Positions 1 through 7,186 of a stretch of 34,085 nt of DNA are shown here, piece by piece. Made by a program: the position numbers and the translations under genes. The notes below the pieces were generated by a model that was not told the DNA's origin, did no database searches, and was given only the letters and a program-made list of their open reading frames with translations. The stretch comes from an uncultured bacterium (lineage in GTDB: Bacteria; Hydrogenedentota; Hydrogenedentia; Hydrogenedentales; JAEUWI01): the NCBI GenBank assembly GCA_963977445.1, contig CAXBPH010000045.1, positions 1-34,085 on the forward strand, in the 5' to 3' direction. How positions within the stretch are numbered: position 1 is the first letter of the stretch; each line of letters begins with the position of its first letter.

Positions 1-1324
1 GATTATGAAACGACTCGGTCGCGGTGGCCTTGGTCAGATTGCAACCCGGTATTGTCACGGTTGTCTGTGCTTCCAACTCGGACCGGGACAGGAATCCGTC
101 TTGATTGCTGTCCAGGGTGTCAAACTGAGCCGTGGTCAAGAGCGAAAGGGACGCGGCGACCTCTACGCGAGACAGACGGCCATCGTTATCGGAATCGGTG
201 CTGGTAAAGCTACTCAAGAGAGATTCAGCCGCCCCGTTCAGGGTCAACTCGCCTTCGCCTTCGCCTTCGCCTTCGCCTTCACCTTCACCTTCACCTTCAC
301 CTGCGTTTTCGGGAACGACTCGATATACCGTGCCATTGATGGTCGAGCCGGGGGCGAAGTCACCTACCCGAATGTTGACGGTATCTGTCGCGCTATTAAA
401 TAGTACCGAATAGTAGAGCCCTGTTCCCTCGGCAGGCTGAAGCGTGTCGAGGAGCGGCAGGCTGGTACGTCCATCGGGCTGATTTTGTGTCAGAAGGGCA
501 GACTCACTGAAATCAAAACGTTTGACGCCATCGTTACCCGGATTAAGCAGGGTCAGGTTTGACGTTATGGCAGGAATGCCTCCGGTAAGGCGGGCCTCAT
601 CGGTCATCACTTCGTTGCCTGATTCCCACGATAGCGTCGTGGTATTGGCGTAAGCCGTCAGCAGGTTCTGCAATTCGAAGGCCCGCAATTCGCCCGTATT
701 GCCATCCATCGCAAATACAAGTTCAGGCGTGTCGTGAAGTATCGATACCGTCGAGGAATAGCTACCTTCCGGTTTCTGGATGAGCGTCGCCTTGGTCGTC
801 TTGTCGTAGGCAGGTTTTGTAACTACCGGTACCAATCGGGATTTGCTCGCCGAAAGATCAGTGATAATCAGCTCACTCGGTTCTCCAAAGGTACCCGCAT
901 CAAGGAGCACCAGGTCGTCGTTGAGGAAAATCCCATCAAAATGCCCCACATTGGCCACCAACGCAGTCTCCGAATAATCTACGGGACTTTCAGTGTCAAA
1001 TCGGTACAGATTGCCACTGAATCCAGCACCCAACAGTGCATAGCGACCGTTTGGAGCCAGTGTGAGGAAGGCCGGGTCGCCCGCATAGCCGGTGGCGATC
1101 ACCTCAAAAGAATCTTCGTCTACAGCGACTTGGCGATAGATGGAATTGCCGTCCCAAACGAGGAGGCGTCCATCCGGCAGCCCGGCGCCCACCACCCCAA
1201 AGGCACTGGCATCGGCCTGAGGAAAGTTTTCATACGTAACGAATTCTGCTGCCCGCGAGACGGGGGCAACAAGGGTGATAAGGCCTAAGATAAGTCCTAT
1301 GGTCAATCGAGTGTGTGTAAACAT
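1..1324 (-). CDS. Secreted beta-rich (probable beta-propeller) surface protein with (GE)9 linker, two EF-hands and a Gly-Cys tail; 3' end runs off the window
   Basis: Manual translation: ATG at 1322-1324 (AAAAGGA upstream) opens 441 uninterrupted codons to the window edge. It begins MFTHTRLTIGLILGLITLVAPVSRA-AEF (signal peptide), has beta-strand repeats such as LPDGRLLVWDG and LAPNGRYALLGAG, then (GE)9, DSDNDGRLSRVE, DSNQDGFLSRSE and PGC. It is absent from the ORF track because it has no stop codon in the window. Confidence 0.9.
   Translation of the reverse strand, partial: MFTHTRLTIGLILGLITLVAPVSRAAEFVTYENFPQADASAFGVVGAGLPDGRLLVWDGNSIYRQVAVDEDSFEVIATGYAGDPAFLTLAPNGRYALLGAGFSGNLYRFDTESPVDYSETALVANVGHFDGIFLNDDLVLLDAGTFGEPSELIITDLSASKSRLVPVVTKPAYDKTTKATLIQKPEGSYSSTVSILHDTPELVFAMDGNTGELRAFELQNLLTAYANTTTLSWESGNEVMTDEARLTGGIPAITSNLTLLNPGNDGVKRFDFSESALLTQNQPDGRTSLPLLDTLQPAEGTGLYYSVLFNSATDTVNIRVGDFAPGSTINGTVYRVVPENAGEGEGEGEGEGEGEGEGELTLNGAAESLLSSFTSTDSDNDGRLSRVEVAASLSLLTTAQFDTLDSNQDGFLSRSELEAQTTVTIPGCNLTKATATESFHN
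248..301 (-). repeat. Hexamer tandem repeat encoding a (Gly-Glu)9 linker
   Basis: Plus strand reads ctc (gccttc)x5 (accttc)x3 acc, which is GEGEGEGEGEGEGEGEGE on the minus strand. Confidence 0.95.
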
Positions 1325-1500
1325 AGCGAAACGGTATTCCTTTTGCAGGGAGCCAAGCCAGACGTAAAATAACGCGCAAAGCGTGGCGGCCCTCCCAGTG
1401 ACCACAAAGGTGGTCGTGATTCGAATGGACACAATTCACCTGTGTCCTTGGTGTGGGAGAATATGGAGAGGAGCAGGTTGCTCATGAGGCGTCCCGTCCC

Positions 1501-1743: not shown

Positions 1744-1871
1744 TCTGAGTCGCCTGCGGGCAGGTTGAATTCGGGCTACAGGGCACCTTTAGGAAACCGG
1801 TGTCGGCTTTACCGGGTCTAAAGATACTGGTGTTAACTATGTGGCCTGTAATGCGGAAAAGGAATCCACCC

Positions 1872-2831
1872 ATGCGTTCTATATTGCTCCTCAGTCTGAC
1901 CTTGTTCGGACTTGTCTCTCTGGCTGCTGCAGAGGAACCCACGTTTGGCGAACGGCTCGGCTGGAAAGCCACCGACCGAATCCTCATTATGCACAATGAC
2001 GATGTGGGCATGTCGCACGAAAGCAATCTGGGGACGATCGAAGGCTTTGAAAAAGGCATCATGACTTCCAGCAGCACCATGATGCCCTGCTCCTGGGTCT
2101 TGGAGTGGCGGGACTATCTGCTGGAGCATCCTGAGATCGACAATGGACTCCACCTTACCCTGACGTCGGAGTGGAAGCATTACCGGTGGCGTCCCGTCGC
2201 TGGTGCTTCGGTCGTGCCGGGCCTGGTGGATGACGAAGGCTACATGCACCGTCAGGTACTGCAGACCATTACCAATGCGTCGGCCGATGAAGTGGAAATA
2301 GAAATTCGTGCACAGATCGCGTTGGCCGAGAAAATGGGCCTGACCGTGACCCATATGGACTCCCACATGGGTACCTTGTTCTACTCCAAAGACTTCCTCG
2401 AGCGATACATCAAAGTGGGCATTGAAAAGCAGATTCCTATCATGATGATGAGTGGACGGGGCGAGCCGGAAAAGGAAATCCAGCGTCAATTGATGCCCCA
2501 GATACAGGCCGCCGCCAAAGTCGTCTGGGAAGGCGGTCTGCCCGTCCTGGATTACCTCATCACGGAGACCAAGGACACGGGAAAGACGGAGGAGATGATT
2601 CCCGCGCTCGTCCAGCGTATTCGTGACCTGAAGCCGGGAATTACCCAGATTATTCACCATGGAACGGACACAGGGTGTAATTTCCATGCCATATCCTCTT
2701 CCGGCGGCAAGCGTACGGCCGAACTCCAGATGACGCTGAGCCCTGAAGTGAAGAAAGCCATCGAAGAAGAAGGAATCATCCTGACGACCTATCGGGAACT
2801 GATGGAACGTCGCAAAGCCGTTAAGGAATAA
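1872..2831 (+). CDS. Secreted ChbG/HpnK/YdjC-family carbohydrate deacetylase
   Basis: Motifs LIMHNDDVG, GLHLTL and THMDSHMG; signal peptide MRSILLLSLTLFGLVSLAAA; AAGGA upstream of ATG 1872. Confidence 0.9.
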   Translation: MRSILLLSLTLFGLVSLAAAEEPTFGERLGWKATDRILIMHNDDVGMSHESNLGTIEGFEKGIMTSSSTMMPCSWVLEWRDYLLEHPEIDNGLHLTLTSEWKHYRWRPVAGASVVPGLVDDEGYMHRQVLQTITNASADEVEIEIRAQIALAEKMGLTVTHMDSHMGTLFYSKDFLERYIKVGIEKQIPIMMMSGRGEPEKEIQRQLMPQIQAAAKVVWEGGLPVLDYLITETKDTGKTEEMIPALVQRIRDLKPGITQIIHHGTDTGCNFHAISSSGGKRTAELQMTLSPEVKKAIEEEGIILTTYRELMERRKAVKE

Positions 2832-2862: not shown

Positions 2863-2928
2863 GCCCTTCAATTAAAACGGACAGACCCTTCGGGGCCTGT
2901 CCGTTTTTATGATTTTAAATTGAAGGGC
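2863..2928. terminator. Bidirectional intrinsic terminator within an extended inverted repeat
   Basis: AAAACGGACAG-ACCC-TTCG-GGGC-CTGTCCGTTTTT, flanked by GCCCTTCAATT/AATTGAAGGGC, between convergent genes. Confidence 0.8.
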
Positions 2929-2971: not shown

Positions 2972-5824
2972 TTATTCCTTTGTTTCGGTAATTAACACGG
3001 GCGTGCCAATGGGGAGTTCTTCAAAAACTTTGACCACATCGTCATTCAACAGACGCACACAGCCGTGGGACGATGGTGTGCCGATGTTTTCCTCGCCATT
3101 GGTGCCATGGATATAGATGCACCGTGTTTTGGAATCAACCAGAACGCCATCGGACCGTGTGCCCTTATTTCTTCCGGGCTCCATACCGTCGAGCCAGAGT
3201 ACCCGTGTCAGGACGAGGTCTTCCTTCACGTCATCGCCGGCCTTCCAGATTTCTTTCGTGGCCTTTCTGGAGCGGAAAACCTGACCCCAGGGGGCATTTT
3301 CGCCAAATTTTTCCGACACGGTGTGCCATCCCAATGGGGTCTGAAGACTGCCTGATACCGAGCCTGTACCCGCGCTGGCGGTAGCGCAGGGAAGGGTCTT
3401 TTGCAGCGCCCCGTTTTCAATGAGATGGAACCGCTGCCGATTGACATCAATCCAGACGCCCAGGCGATCCCCCACCCGGCTTTGCCAGTCGAACTCCTTG
3501 AGGCGTTCCGCGCTTAATTCGTCCACTACGGGACCTCCCTCGCTGACTTTTTCGGTTTCCGTACCGTTGCTGGTAACTGCGATGCCCTTGGGGGCCTGAA
3601 CGTCCACCGCGACGCCATCAGGTACCGTCAGGTGATACCCATTTTTCGGGTCGTAGCTAATAATCATCGTACCTTTGGGATGAGGCACGGTCAAGGTCAT
3701 CGCCGGGAGCTTGGCAATGCCCGGCGGGGCAAAGCGCACGGTGTCCCAACCCGGTGTGCCGGGTGTTACGCCCAGAACATATTCCGCAATCAGATAGATG
3801 GGACTACTGCTCCAGGGATGGCACCAACTTGTGTTCCACTTCTGGTCGGGGCCCCAGGCTTCCAAACACGTGGTAGCACCGGCCCGGAGCATTTCTTTCC
3901 AGCTGTGCTCTGAATCGTTGGTCAGGAGGGCGTATCCCAATTCCGCGTCACCGGCGCGAAAACATGCCTCAATGACATACGAAGCGATATAGACGCCGCA
4001 ACTCAGCCCCTTGTCCTTTATCAAGGCGATCATTTTATCTTTGTCCGCGCCTCGGGTGAGGCCAAAAGCCAGGGGGATGGCGTTGGCATGGAGTGCACTA
4101 TGGGTAGAGCCCGGCGCATCCAGATAGAGGCCCGTTTTCGGGTTTACCAGCTGGCTGGCAAAGGCTTCTGCAACGGTCTCGGCCTTGTTCGAATAGGCCG
4201 AACCGTCACGCCCCAATTCAAGCTCAAGGCGCGCCGCGCACTGGAGTGCACCGTAGTAGAATCCGTTCAGCACGGTGTTCGCTTTGTCTTTGGAGTAGTC
4301 GTAGTCATAGTTGTCGCGCAGATTCTCCGGCCAATCTACGAGGAGCCATTTTTCAGGACGGTCCAGACCAACAATAAGACCGGATTCATCGACGAAACTT
4401 CCGTAGTAATTGAACAAGCCGGGGAAAACGTGATCCACCATGGCCTCGAGGAAGGCCCGATCACCAGTGTGCTGGTAGTAAAATTCCAACATGAGCGGAT
4501 ACTGGAGCGAGTATTCCGCAATCTCCTGCATAAAGTGTCCCGGGGCAACAGCCATCATGCCGGGGTCAATCTGGCAGGAAAGATAAAAATCGTAGAGTGC
4601 TTTCTTGGTCAAGGTGGGATCGGCCGTCAACCAGAGATGGGAGCGGGCCGTGATAACGGCGTCACCGAGATATTGCCCTTTTTCCCGGGTGGGACAATCG
4701 AGGAAGCCCCCCTGTGATCCCATCTGGACGCCACGCTTACAAATGTCGAAAATGCGCATCAGCGATTCGTCTTCCGATGTGAAGGCGCTCGCCTCTGCAT
4801 CGAAGGGATGGTGGCGCACTTCCACCCAGACCTCGGGCTTTTCCGGGGCGTTGAGGACCTCCATATAGCGAAAGGCGCGGTAATCATAGAAGGAAATGAC
4901 ATCCTGTCCCCCCGAAAGTACCGGTTTTTCTTCATACGTCATACTGGCCCGAATCTTGTAGCGCACGCGTCCCGATTCATCGAGCTCTTCGCCATGACGA
5001 ACCGTGAGTACCTGACCGGCCTCGCCCTGGAGCGCCACACGGGTGTGGCCGACGATTTCGGTGCCAAAATCGTAAAACCAGCCTCCATCATCCAGCGGTT
5101 TTACCAGGGTCGGCTCAACCCGATATCGTTGAAGCGGTGCCGTCGCCTGTTGGGTAAACTGATGGTCTTGTCGGCCGATCAGGGGTGCCACCCAGTCTGT
5201 GTCGTCGAAGCCCACATGTGTCCAGCCGACGGGTATGAGGCGCATATCGATATGCTCTAGAAACTGGGTGTCATATCCAATATCTTCGATGCCAGGAAAG
5301 GCCATCAGGGGGTGGATTCGCCAGGATTCATCGGAAACGTAGGTGGCTGACGTGCCATCGACGTAGGTGACCTTAAGTTTGAGGATGAAACCGGACCGAT
5401 TGTCGGCACTCCCCCACACCCTGTTGCGAAGTCCCTGATAGAAGGAATGACTGGCAAGACAATTGGTGCCTTCTACCAGATACTCCGTCACGTCGAGCCA
5501 GTAATAGGGATAGGAAAAGTAATAGCCACCCTCCGGCCCCTGCACGACGGGCTGGCCGTTGATGGAAAACTTATAGTAGTCGTCCCCGGAAATGAAGAGT
5601 TCAGCGCGGGCGGGCTTTCCGGACAAGGTAACTTCTTTCCTCAACAGGGTGTGAATGTTTTGTGGACCCGCCAGTGGCGGTGGGTCAACCTGCTCACGAT
5701 GAAGAAAGTTAACAATCGGCGCGTCGGCCATCCGTGGATCACGGAGCCACTCAGCCTCGTCAAACACGTCAGCCCAAAGGGGACCGGCAATCAATACAGA
5801 CAAGATGAGAATAAGACGGTACAT
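2972..5824 (-). CDS. Secreted GH78 alpha-L-rhamnosidase-family protein fused to a C-terminal L,D-transpeptidase (YkuD) domain
   Basis: GGAGGA RBS, then MYRLILILSVLIAGPLWA (signal peptide). GH78 motifs ISGDDYY, YDFGTEIVG, DCPTREKGQYLGD, ATTCLEAW and SWCHPWSS. The C-terminal ~165 aa carry TPLGWH, LTRVLWLDG and IYIHGT...SHGCVRL. Confidence 0.9.
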   Translation of the reverse strand: MYRLILILSVLIAGPLWADVFDEAEWLRDPRMADAPIVNFLHREQVDPPPLAGPQNIHTLLRKEVTLSGKPARAELFISGDDYYKFSINGQPVVQGPEGGYYFSYPYYWLDVTEYLVEGTNCLASHSFYQGLRNRVWGSADNRSGFILKLKVTYVDGTSATYVSDESWRIHPLMAFPGIEDIGYDTQFLEHIDMRLIPVGWTHVGFDDTDWVAPLIGRQDHQFTQQATAPLQRYRVEPTLVKPLDDGGWFYDFGTEIVGHTRVALQGEAGQVLTVRHGEELDESGRVRYKIRASMTYEEKPVLSGGQDVISFYDYRAFRYMEVLNAPEKPEVWVEVRHHPFDAEASAFTSEDESLMRIFDICKRGVQMGSQGGFLDCPTREKGQYLGDAVITARSHLWLTADPTLTKKALYDFYLSCQIDPGMMAVAPGHFMQEIAEYSLQYPLMLEFYYQHTGDRAFLEAMVDHVFPGLFNYYGSFVDESGLIVGLDRPEKWLLVDWPENLRDNYDYDYSKDKANTVLNGFYYGALQCAARLELELGRDGSAYSNKAETVAEAFASQLVNPKTGLYLDAPGSTHSALHANAIPLAFGLTRGADKDKMIALIKDKGLSCGVYIASYVIEACFRAGDAELGYALLTNDSEHSWKEMLRAGATTCLEAWGPDQKWNTSWCHPWSSSPIYLIAEYVLGVTPGTPGWDTVRFAPPGIAKLPAMTLTVPHPKGTMIISYDPKNGYHLTVPDGVAVDVQAPKGIAVTSNGTETEKVSEGGPVVDELSAERLKEFDWQSRVGDRLGVWIDVNRQRFHLIENGALQKTLPCATASAGTGSVSGSLQTPLGWHTVSEKFGENAPWGQVFRSRKATKEIWKAGDDVKEDLVLTRVLWLDGMEPGRNKGTRSDGVLVDSKTRCIYIHGTNGEENIGTPSSHGCVRLLNDDVVKVFEELPIGTPVLITETKE

Positions 5825-5909
5825 TGGACTCAAAATTCCTCCGGGTTTATCGCCGTAGTGTATCAAGGTTTGCCCGTAGGTTCCCACTTGCCGGGTTCCA
5901 AACGCCGGG

Positions 5910-5938
5910 TTTACAAACAATTACTCATTGGGTATGAT
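5910..5938 (+). promoter_or_regulatory. Putative sigma70 promoter for the 6032 gene
   Basis: TTTACA-N17-TATGAT. Confidence 0.5.
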
Positions 5939-6031: not shown

Positions 6032-7186
6032 ATGGCAACGGTAAAAGGTCCAAGTCGTGTATTTCTTGCGCGATTTAAGAACGACAAGAAGAAGTACATC
6101 CATATTGAACCCTTTAAGGTCGAGACGCAGCACGACTTCGGCAAAATTAAGAAACCCCCTTCTGCCGCTGTAAAGCGGATGGACAAAATAGCCACCGCTG
6201 TCCTCGACCGCTACGAAAATGTCTGCTACAAAACCATCGTCGATATGGACGCCAAGATAACTGGTATCGTTGGTAAAGCAAAAGCGTCAAAGAATGCGGC
6301 CACAGAGCTGCCCAAGGCGGAGGCAGAAGCCCAGAAAATGGCGGATCGCACCATCGCCATGGTGAAGAAGGCGGCGGCGGCGGTTCAGGGAGCGATCGAA
6401 AGCGAAGTTCAAAAGGCCTTGGCGAAAGAGAAAAACTTCGCAGAACTCCTCGTTGAGTATAAGGTTAAGGTCGTCTACAACATCGGCAAAGAGACGGTTT
6501 CCGTTACCATCAATGTGCTTCGACTCGTGGGTACGGGGGGCGCCGATTTGAGTGCCTGGAAGGGGCTGGTTACTTCGGCCGTGGCCATTGGAAAGGTGGT
6601 GAAAGACGCGTCAAAAGGCGAAAAATCGGTGCGTAAGGATATGGATGGTGCCATTGCTGATCACACCAAGAATCTCTGGAAAGAAGACGCCTACAAGAAA
6701 AAAGATAAGAAGACTCTGAAGGACCGGGCAAAACACTACTGGCAGAAGCACAAAAAGACCGGTGAAAAAGCAGCGGCAAAGCTGAAACGCTATGATGTTT
6801 ATATTGGCGGTCTATTTAAGGATATTAACAAGGCCGGCGATGACGTTGATGCGAGCTGGAAGAAACTGGACAAGCAAATCGCTGCGATGCCGGGTGGATT
6901 CAATAATCCGAAAGCCAAAAAGGCCGTTGCGTCTATGGGCCCCGCGATTCTAGGGATGAAAAAGAATTTGAAGGCCATGGGCGTCATGCTGGAAGAGAAG
7001 ATGGCGTATGCGGACGATATGGCCATGTTACTCACCGAACAGGGCGTTGCGGTGGACCGGGACAGCTTTCAGAAAAAATGGCGTGATGGACGGGCGACAA
7101 AAGACCTCCTCGCCATATCGAAGGAAGTCTTTTCGTCGGCAAAGAGTATCAAAACGTTGGCGGAAGAGATTGGCAAGTTAGTGTAA
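6032..7186 (+). CDS. Lys/Ala-rich helical hypothetical protein with a central Gly-rich hydrophobic segment (effector/toxin-like)
   Basis: 384-aa ORF with GGAGGA RBS and its own terminator; no signal peptide; segment TVSVTINVLRLVGTGGADLSAWKGLVTSAVAIGKVV. Confidence 0.85.
   Translation: MATVKGPSRVFLARFKNDKKKYIHIEPFKVETQHDFGKIKKPPSAAVKRMDKIATAVLDRYENVCYKTIVDMDAKITGIVGKAKASKNAATELPKAEAEAQKMADRTIAMVKKAAAAVQGAIESEVQKALAKEKNFAELLVEYKVKVVYNIGKETVSVTINVLRLVGTGGADLSAWKGLVTSAVAIGKVVKDASKGEKSVRKDMDGAIADHTKNLWKEDAYKKKDKKTLKDRAKHYWQKHKKTGEKAAAKLKRYDVYIGGLFKDINKAGDDVDASWKKLDKQIAAMPGGFNNPKAKKAVASMGPAILGMKKNLKAMGVMLEEKMAYADDMAMLLTEQGVAVDRDSFQKKWRDGRATKDLLAISKEVFSSAKSIKTLAEEIGKLV

Follow-up and report, generated by a model that had tools for sequence, protein, structure and literature searches.

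Architecture of the fusion gene

The analysed window is a stretch of 34,085 nucleotides (nt) from an uncultured bacterium of the phylum Candidatus Hydrogenedentota (assembly GCA_963977445.1, contig CAXBPH010000045.1). At positions 2972–5824, its minus strand carries a gene for a predicted exported protein of 950 amino acids (aa), in which a glycoside hydrolase of family 78 (GH78) is fused to a C-terminal YkuD domain. The open reading frame (ORF) has no interruption; it starts with an ATG at 5824 and consists of 950 codons followed by the stop codon at 2972–2974. The longest frame begins with a TTG at 5920 and encodes 982 aa. A Shine–Dalgarno-like GGAGGA can be read from the sequence at 5837–5842 (minus strand), with a 12-nt spacer to the ATG. 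The start at 5824 gives the leader MYRLILILSVLIAGPLWA, followed by DVF, which is Sec-type by eye; this signal-peptide-like N-terminus, also visible in hydropathy, covers residues 1–19 (5768–5824, minus strand).

All further features of the gene lie on the same strand. The GH78 part begins with Bac_rhamnosid_N (PF08531; residues 70–228, positions 5141–5617; 54.2 bits at a cut-off of 25), the concanavalin-like domain Bac_rhamnosid (PF05592; residues 244–330, positions 4835–5095; 41.3 bits at a cut-off of 22.2), and the (alpha/alpha)6 catalytic domain Bac_rhamnosid6H (PF17389; residues 344–683, positions 3776–4795; 136.6 bits at a cut-off of 24.5, E 1.6e-39). The GH78 C-terminal beta-sandwich (Bac_rhamnosid_C, PF17390; residues 685–753, positions 3566–3772) scores 17.5 bits, below its cut-off of 22.1; the same family was recorded for many relatives of the protein. 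A poorly conserved linker (residues 754–775, positions 3500–3565) leads to the YkuD module at 2975–3499, which according to Pfam, the ElsL model and the predicted structure has two short N-terminal helices with an invariant W780, and then the YkuD fold. Its Pfam match (PF03734) spans residues 790–945, that is, 2990–3457 of the window, with 72.6 bits at a cut-off of 23.4 (E 6.5e-20).

A preliminary description, made from the sequence alone, had proposed a single-ORF fusion of GH78 and YkuD with a signal peptide, a short linker, and the YkuD domain at about 2975–3465. The uninterrupted 950-aa frame, the leader-like N-terminus, the Pfam domains of both halves and the position of the YkuD match agree with this outline.

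Recurrence of the fusion

A collection of 5.8 billion proteins was searched with the fusion protein, and 528 matches were found. Among the 120 best homologues of these 528 (five sources), 109 carry both PF17389 and PF03734 and are 919–989 aa in length, and 11 have 744–778 aa without YkuD. The organism names attached to the best homologues are all Candidatus Hydrogenedentes, -ota, -ales or Hydrogenedens, except for one “bacterium”. Conservation was analysed in an alignment of 105 full-length relatives, 47–75% identical to the query, from which the 11 YkuD-less clusters and the partial proteins P0015, P0084, P0102 and P0103 of the 120 were left out. Column identity in this alignment is 0.6–0.9 in the GH78 and YkuD domains, and its mean is 0.27 in the linker stretch 751–775. 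A hydrophobic N-terminal segment was detected in 85 of the 105 family members by a crude Kyte–Doolittle test.

The fusion was also sought in independent genomes, namely, in a sample of 135 genomes of Candidatus Hydrogenedentota. The fusion protein has matches in 129 of them; by our own count, at least 54 run end to end in one frame. Overall, at least 56 of the 135 genomes contain the fusion, including the single-contig genomes G069 and G034, both with an end-to-end form. It persists over at least nine families at 47–78% identity. A scan of contigs from named genomes yielded 79 loci, 30 of which reach query residue 935 or beyond. Hydrogenedent- names, that of Candidatus Hydrogenedens terephthalaticus among them, stand on 22 of these 30 end-to-end loci; the submitters gave the title Nitrospirales or Nitrospiraceae to seven, and one is an “uncultured bacterium”. 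The seven loci titled uncultured Nitrospirales/Nitrospiraceae (L039, L042, L043, L047, L052, L061 and L062) encode the full fusion at 49–62% identity. Elsewhere, the architecture was seen under Hydrogenedentota names only; the exception can be explained either by inaccurate titles or by transfer of the fusion between phyla.

It had been considered that relatives might always possess two separate genes. This does not hold; split forms are rare and were found in only two genomes, both of genus g27, where the halves are separate adjacent genes. Such a gene pair is what one would expect if assembly or gene calling had joined two neighbours into an artificial fusion; yet the frame is open here and in at least 56 genomes, two of them single-contig, 109 of the 120 best homologues have two domains, and 30 of the 79 named loci match end to end. 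The pattern lies well outside chance. We regard an artefact as next to impossible, and an assembly chimera in particular was ruled out by the recurrence of the fusion in many genomes.

The preliminary description knew of no protein with both domains, and none has come to light: a literature search, which did not extend to domain-architecture databases, revealed no description of a GH78 or rhamnosidase plus YkuD architecture. The fusion protein is not mentioned in the available excerpts of two papers dealing with Hydrogenedentota and rhamnose (PMC10866078, PMC12555021).

The GH78 part

The acidic motif DCPTREKGQYLGD occupies residues 376–388 (4661–4699, minus strand) and includes D376, E381 and D388; the motif TTCLEAW, with E655, occupies residues 651–657 (3854–3874, minus strand). 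Both were described earlier as intact, and the alignment bears this out: D376 is kept in 104 of the 105 relatives, and E381, D388 and E655 are each kept in all of them. The best solved sequence match of the GH78 part is RhaB from Bacillus sp. GL1 (PDB 2okx, E 6.7e-25); BT1001 from B. thetaiotaomicron (3cih, E 4.6e-21) is also among the best. The order of domains is the same in these proteins. In the alignment with RhaB, the four acidic residues correspond to D567, E572, D579 and E841 of that enzyme, which we take to be catalytic and rhamnose-binding residues. Most likely, the GH78 part is an exo-glycosidase of the RhaB/BT1001 type and a predicted alpha-L-rhamnosidase.

Unlike RhaB and BT1001, however, the GH78 of the fusion is divergent and carries a C-terminal YkuD module. 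Its scores with the NCBIfam rhamnosidase equivalogs are far below the cut-offs (118.5 vs. 1720 and 79.6 vs. 1800 bits), so it is not an orthologue of these proteins. With the six-hairpin Pfam model it scores about 140 bits, compared with 298–393 bits for the genome's four other GH78 genes. Judged by these scores, it represents a divergent subfamily. YkuD-less GH78 relatives of about 750 aa, 37–50% identical, occur in Paenibacillus, Cohnella, Clostridia, Lentisphaeria, Kiritimatiellae, Phycisphaerae and others. When the whole protein was compared with ESM Atlas, only YkuD-less GH78 clusters of Bacteroidota were returned, which we treat as a lead.

The YkuD module

The catalytic motif of the module, IHGT...SSHGCVRL (H906-G-T...S919-H920-G-C922), lies at 3059–3109 (minus strand) and is conserved in relatives. 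H906, G907, T908, G921 and C922 are kept in 105 of 105 sequences, and H920 in 94. The arrangement H906-G907-X14-C922 fits the consensus H(S/G/D)X14-19C given for YkuD proteins in the available part of PMC4599014, and the His-to-Cys spacing equals that of B. subtilis YkuD. The preliminary description had called this motif intact, which is correct for H906 and C922, but there are 13 residues between the two histidines and not 14.

The NCBIfam model of ElsL (NF040925) aligns to the module over positions 8–162 of its 164, with 115–120 bits (E 2.5e-33 at 115 bits), whereas the alignment with classical L,D-transpeptidase models is confined to some 45 residues at the catalytic motif. On the strength of these alignments, the module is assigned to an ElsL-related subfamily and not to the classical cross-linking type. 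This argues against the earlier suggestion that the YkuD domain is of the type that makes 3-3 cross-links or attaches proteins to peptidoglycan. Three other YkuD proteins are encoded in the same genome. Two of them are LdtE-like, with TPR-LysM-YkuD and PilZ-YkuD architectures, and the third is YafK/DpaA-like. With the ElsL model, the three reach only 28–33 bits over about 40 residues.

ElsL, also named LdtK, is a leaderless, cytoplasmic L,D-carboxypeptidase of Acinetobacter baumannii according to the accessible portion of the report on it (PMC8649774). There, the enzyme is described as converting disaccharide-tetrapeptide to tripeptide, as inactive on pentapeptide, and as making no cross-links. 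The survey of ElsL orthologues outlined in that portion accepted leaderless proteins of 105–200 aa and excluded those with a signal peptide or longer than 200 aa (PMC8649774); because of this exclusion, exported relatives such as the present one lay outside the survey.

An exhaustive HMMER search with the YkuD domain alone returned 3169 proteins, and among the closer ones several other partners of the subfamily can be noted. P0183 and P0210 carry an ElsL-like YkuD domain fused N-terminally to a ligase of the MurC/Mpl family (227–282 bits with the murC model, below its cut-off); their YkuD domains are 47% identical to the query module over 156 residues. In P0195, the same subfamily is fused to Amidase_3 (N-acetylmuramoyl-L-alanine amidase), and the relatives fused to MurC/Mpl and Amidase_3 are 47–49% identical. 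By their domain content, the YkuD-MurC/Mpl fusions provide a Rosetta-stone link between the subfamily and the re-use of wall peptides. Further partners are PGA_cap and ankyrin repeats (P0179, P0170); the PGA_cap fusion lies within the Hydrogenedentota clade on the domain tree. In ESM Atlas, the YkuD domain led to clusters of about 175 aa from Pseudomonadota, again as a lead only.

The structure of residues 760–950 was predicted with 101 relatives, with a predicted local distance difference test (pLDDT) score of 95.3 and a predicted template modelling (pTM) score of 0.90. In the model, two short N-terminal helices are followed by a beta core, and the YkuD fold of the module is confirmed at the level of prediction. 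The best structural match is B. subtilis YkuD (1y7m; Z 16.4, root-mean-square deviation 2.1 over 115 residues, 27% identity). Mycobacterial and enterococcal transpeptidases follow with Z 13–15, and the L,D-carboxypeptidases Csd6, Pgp2 and Bd1075 give Z 13.6, 12.7 and 12.5 over 131–135 residues. Among the sequences of the PDB, the YkuD subfamily has no close relative of solved structure; only the catalytic segment of about 45 residues aligned. The fusion protein contains neither LysM nor PG_binding domains and no NTF2 Pfam match, and it ends after YkuD.

Distribution and forms in the phylum

With the ElsL model at E<=1e-15, the domain was detected in 123 of the 135 genomes of Candidatus Hydrogenedentota; 122 have exactly one copy and G089 has two. 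The ElsL-like domain is therefore a near-universal single-copy gene of the phylum. The curated cut-off of the model is exceeded in none of the 135 genomes. By our own count, the 124 frames that host the domain comprise 56 of at least 850 aa, 17 of 500–750 aa and 51 of less than 500 aa. Four of the 17 mid-length frames represent full forms truncated at a contig end or by a frameshift.

In about 50 genomes of the phylum, the YkuD module occurs by itself; the stand-alone proteins inspected, with lengths of 203, 220 and 231 aa, each begin with a hydrophobic leader. A further class is formed by proteins of about 560–600 aa, represented by L029:7223-9016 (597 aa, genome G048) and nine cluster representatives (P0142, P0144, P0145, P0148, P0158–P0161 and P0165). 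These short forms start with a leader, continue with what is left of the six-hairpin domain and with a beta-sandwich, and end in an intact YkuD domain. Their GH78 remnant has lost the DCPxRE motif, and a 25-residue segment with E655 is deleted; to judge from these losses, it is catalytically dead. The mean identity among the ten short forms is 28% in the remnant and 64% in the YkuD module. The short form appears to be a transitional stage as the fusion falls apart.

The two g27 genomes with separate halves (G049 and G057) differ in how the gene is split: in one, the halves overlap through a frameshift, and in the other, stops in all frames lie between them. The split-off YkuD ORFs (L023:8163-11199 in G049 and L024:1979-4824 in G057) have no leader. 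Either their products would be cytoplasmic like ElsL, or these ORFs are decaying. In G112, a stand-alone YkuD gene is located directly upstream of a different GH78-like gene, and in G065 and G066 a YkuD-less paralogue adjoins the fusion.

A domain phylogeny was built with FastTree from 295 tips; left out were 60 proteins whose completeness was uncertain, and 8 of mid length that lack a Met start and a leader. Full and stand-alone forms are intermingled on the tree: parsimony requires 30 changes among the 239 in-group tips, and the root is ambiguous. It is implausible that the same two partners were joined independently time and again, and we therefore read the tree as showing a fusion that is probably ancestral in the phylum, with a dispensable GH78 part that has been lost or has decayed repeatedly. 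On this reading, the peptidase is the part that relatives in the phylum keep, and the GH78 is its dispensable partner.

Wall-recycling genes

Peptidase_S66 (LdcA) was found in 3 of the 135 genomes and not in the genome of the window itself, which is 94% complete. The Mpl model at E<=1e-90 responds in 112 of the 135, with 45 over the curated cut-off. There is one copy per genome, except for G035 with two matches on separate contigs, and among 14 control genomes only E. coli responds. The genome of the window has an Mpl-like ligase (376.7 bits) and AnmK (332.8 bits). No permease of the AmpG type was found in this 94% complete genome with TIGR00901, which would fit trimming of the peptide before uptake.

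The need for trimming in lineages with Mpl is known from E. coli ldcA mutants. Where wall peptides are re-used by way of Mpl, the tetrapeptide must be trimmed to tripeptide, as is also stated in the accessible portion of PMC8649774. LdcA is nearly absent, and the ElsL-like module is the only candidate trimmer of tetrapeptides in these genomes. Since the module is predicted to be exported, trimming would be periplasmic, before uptake.

RmlC, a dTDP-sugar isomerase (dTDP, deoxythymidine diphosphate), is required for the synthesis of dTDP-rhamnose. It was detected in 124 of the 135 genomes and in 11 of the 14 controls. Its presence was tried as a sign that the substrate is the bacterium's own rhamnose, but it is nearly universal and so uninformative, apart from genus g15. 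No RmlC was found in the five genomes of this genus (G027–G031), three of which (G027, G029 and G030) encode fusions with intact motifs. Because of these intact fusions without detectable RmlC, and because YkuD-less relatives of the GH78 are widespread, the GH78 part would be expected to act on rhamnosides from outside the cell.

Comparison with known enzymes

The similarity to ElsL extends beyond the alignment of the whole model: both have a single catalytic domain without a peptidoglycan-binding domain, and the host has Mpl and lacks LdcA. The differences are that the module has an extra two-helix N-terminal extension with the invariant W780, and that the stand-alone relatives of the phylum also carry leaders.

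Csd6 of H. pylori, Pgp2 of C. jejuni and Bd1075 of Bdellovibrio are likewise exported proteins of the YkuD fold, and they trim tetrapeptides; their structural similarity to the module is Z 12.5–13.6. Csd6 combines an L,D-carboxypeptidase with a second domain that has a putative pocket for pseudaminic acid, as described in the available part of PMC4599014, which makes it the nearest precedent for a peptidase combined with a sugar-handling module. However, the second domain of these three proteins is NTF2-like, and the fusion has none. Its partner is a large, complete N-terminal glycoside hydrolase with intact catalytic residues, identity to the three is only 13–18%, and no link to cell shape is known for the fusion.

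B. subtilis YkuD (LdtBs) and the classical enzymes LdtMt2, Ldtfm and E. coli LdtA–E share the fold and the catalytic residues with the module, and LdtBs also shares the His–Cys spacing. As noted for the models, only the segment of about 45 residues aligns with the classical enzymes, and the genome's own LdtE-like proteins have LysM or TPR. Tlde1/Tae5 (DUF2778) is a YkuD-related cysteine enzyme which, in the part of the preprint that was available (10.1101/2020.02.18.954545), hydrolyses the bond between meso-diaminopimelate (mDAP) and D-Ala and does not cross-link. It is a member of another Pfam family, with His and Cys closer together in the sequence. Its delivery is by a type VI secretion system, and immunity proteins accompany it; neither is seen for the fusion.

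Proposed function and alternatives

From the observed architecture, conservation, subfamily assignment, fold and phyletic pattern, we infer export, two enzymatic activities, of which the second is that of a carboxypeptidase rather than a transpeptidase, and a link to wall recycling. The explanation to which we give about an even chance is that of an exported two-enzyme protein, in which an active RhaB-type GH78, ancestral and dispensable, is joined to a periplasmic ElsL-related L,D-carboxypeptidase serving wall recycling. The GH78 part would act on rhamnosides taken up from outside the cell. Cys922 would attack the mDAP–D-Ala bond in tetrapeptides, whether these are stems or free; with D-Ala released, water, not a second stem, would resolve the acyl-enzyme to give a tripeptide. 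This product would suit the Mpl ligase of a lineage without LdcA. The peptidase would then be a core single-copy component, and the GH78 an ancestral passenger that supplies the export signal.

Several points weigh against this explanation. The module scores 115–120 bits where the curated ElsL cut-off is 270, so it is a relative of ElsL and not its orthologue. To our knowledge, ElsL is the only characterised member of this YkuD subfamily, and the exported members are uncharacterised. ElsL is leaderless and cytoplasmic, whereas the module is predicted to be exported behind a 770-aa GH78; among the nearest short relatives outside the clade, 52 of 78 also look exported in a crude hydropathy test. 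The export of the fusion protein is itself deduced from a leader recognised by eye and hydropathy. Carboxypeptidases and transpeptidases are separated neither by sequence nor, in the predicted model, by fold, with both types at Z 12–16. A periplasmic recycling L,D-carboxypeptidase would need an importer for the tripeptide. The predicted rhamnose specificity of the GH78 follows from conserved acidic residues whose roles are known from RhaB. In addition, the persistence of the fusion over at least nine families is unexpected if the two functions are unrelated, and some coupling may exist.

Possibly, though we consider it unlikely, the YkuD module is a true L,D-transpeptidase that makes 3-3 cross-links, or that fixes itself or another protein to peptidoglycan and so holds the rhamnosidase at the wall. 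Self-tethering of this kind had been put forward in the preliminary description. Such an anchor would be the easiest account of a fusion to an unrelated enzyme. The His and Cys of the fold are intact, the transpeptidase-type B. subtilis YkuD is the best structural match, export is predicted as for the classical enzymes, and a flexible, poorly conserved linker is suitable for a tether. Yet the ElsL model covers the whole domain, which the classical models do not, and the genome encodes its LdtE-like and YafK-like proteins separately. A near-universal single-copy module that stands alone in so many genomes must have a job of its own; no acceptor residue is conserved at the C-terminus, where the consensus ends in variable positions, and a periplasmic enzyme of a two-membrane cell requires no tether. 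The notion that the protein is a secreted tool against foreign walls, of necromass or prey, appears improbable to us. The GH78 would strip rhamnose-rich polysaccharides or linker units, and the YkuD domain would trim stems; both active-looking domains share one leader, and YkuD-related L,D-carboxypeptidases are used against other bacteria, as with Bd1075 and with Tlde1/Tae5 in the part of the preprint available (10.1101/2020.02.18.954545). The phylum is also described as a polysaccharide degrader in mats in the excerpts of PMC10866078 and PMC12555021. Against this, the leader is of the Sec type, with no outer-membrane secretion signal or sorting tag in a protein that ends after YkuD; the neighbourhood is not conserved and keeps no immunity-like or secretion gene. 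The single-copy core, together with Mpl and the absence of LdcA, points to housekeeping, and removal of the terminal D-Ala leaves a wall unbroken.

A coupling of both activities on a rhamnose glycan of the cell's own envelope, attached to peptidoglycan or released with it, so that the six-hairpin domain would recognise the sugar and YkuD would process the peptide, is in our opinion very improbable. The long persistence of the fusion would agree with such coupling. So would the adjacency of the halves where they are split (G049 and G057), the position of the YkuD gene upstream of a GH78-like gene in G112, the dead six-hairpin kept before YkuD in many lineages, and the presence of RmlC in 124 of 135 genomes. 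A peptidase with a putative sugar-binding domain has its precedent in Csd6, as far as the available text of PMC4599014 goes. However, RmlC is common in bacteria at large (11 of the 14 controls), the intact g15 fusions come from a genus in which it was found in none of five genomes, the dead remnant no longer has its sugar-pocket residues and diverges quickly (28% identity against 64% for YkuD), and about 50 genomes have YkuD alone. The preliminary description had likewise proposed that removal of a rhamnose-containing wall glycan is coupled to peptidoglycan remodelling, and the stand-alone YkuD genes, the dead GH78 beside a kept YkuD, and g15 weaken that proposal. A specific variant, with an equally slim chance, is one composite product of envelope turnover, a peptidoglycan fragment or wall-linked polymer with alpha-L-rhamnose, on which both domains would act in one periplasmic step. 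This would imply a kind of glycosylated wall, and a step in its recycling, that no bacterium is known to have, and the dead six-hairpin of the short forms would remain as a targeting module.

The explanation as an exported carboxypeptidase with a dispensable GH78 would have consequences beyond this locus. The tetrapeptide-trimming step of recycling would be periplasmic in the phylum, and there would be a testable function for a large, uncharacterised group of exported ElsL-like proteins from other phyla. Current databases name such proteins either “family 78 glycoside hydrolase” or “L,D-transpeptidase”; either name hides half of the fusion protein, and the second probably states the wrong reaction. 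The ElsL-type YkuD domain is extended here from a cytoplasmic recycling enzyme of Proteobacteria to a predicted exported, near-universal single-copy component of an uncultured phylum. The series from full fusion through the form with a dead GH78 to the stand-alone peptidase is a natural experiment on how fused enzymes separate.

Surroundings of the gene and other observations

Between the fusion gene and its downstream neighbour lies a 15-bp hairpin followed by UUUUAAUU, terminator-like, at 2874–2907 (minus strand). It was spotted by eye and folded afterwards, with -26.6 kcal/mol and z -7.2, and none of 200 shuffles folds as well. A promoter and terminator scan near the gene ends gave nothing above the shuffle background and missed this hairpin. 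The upstream neighbour is divergent and the downstream one convergent. Given the terminator-like hairpin and the divergent upstream neighbour, the fusion gene looks like its own transcription unit.

The convergent neighbour (1800–2831, plus strand) encodes a YdjC-like putative carbohydrate deacetylase with a hydrophobic N-terminus; its place beside the fusion recurs only in the genome of the same genus, G069 (L011). The divergent neighbour (6032–7186, plus strand) encodes a Lys/Ala-rich protein of 384 aa with no Pfam family and is not kept beside the fusion in other genomes. Across the phylum, the gene neighbourhood shows no conservation, and no immunity-like or secretion gene is kept beside the fusion. 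At 2–1432 (minus strand), an ORF of at least 477 aa runs past the window end; its product has a leader and a (Gly-Glu)n run, and near the C-terminus there are EF-hand or dockerin-like DxDxDG motifs, for which the EF-hand Pfam matches are weak and below gathering scores. The remaining genes of the window are housekeeping genes with no relation to the fusion.

Elsewhere in the genome of the window, on contig C366 (L002:373-1884), the PilZ-YkuD protein P0380 of 503 aa can be noted, with an N-terminal PilZ domain, a hydrophobic segment and an LdtE-like YkuD domain. This architecture, of which we know no description, could be that of an L,D-transpeptidase under the control of cyclic di-GMP (c-di-GMP).

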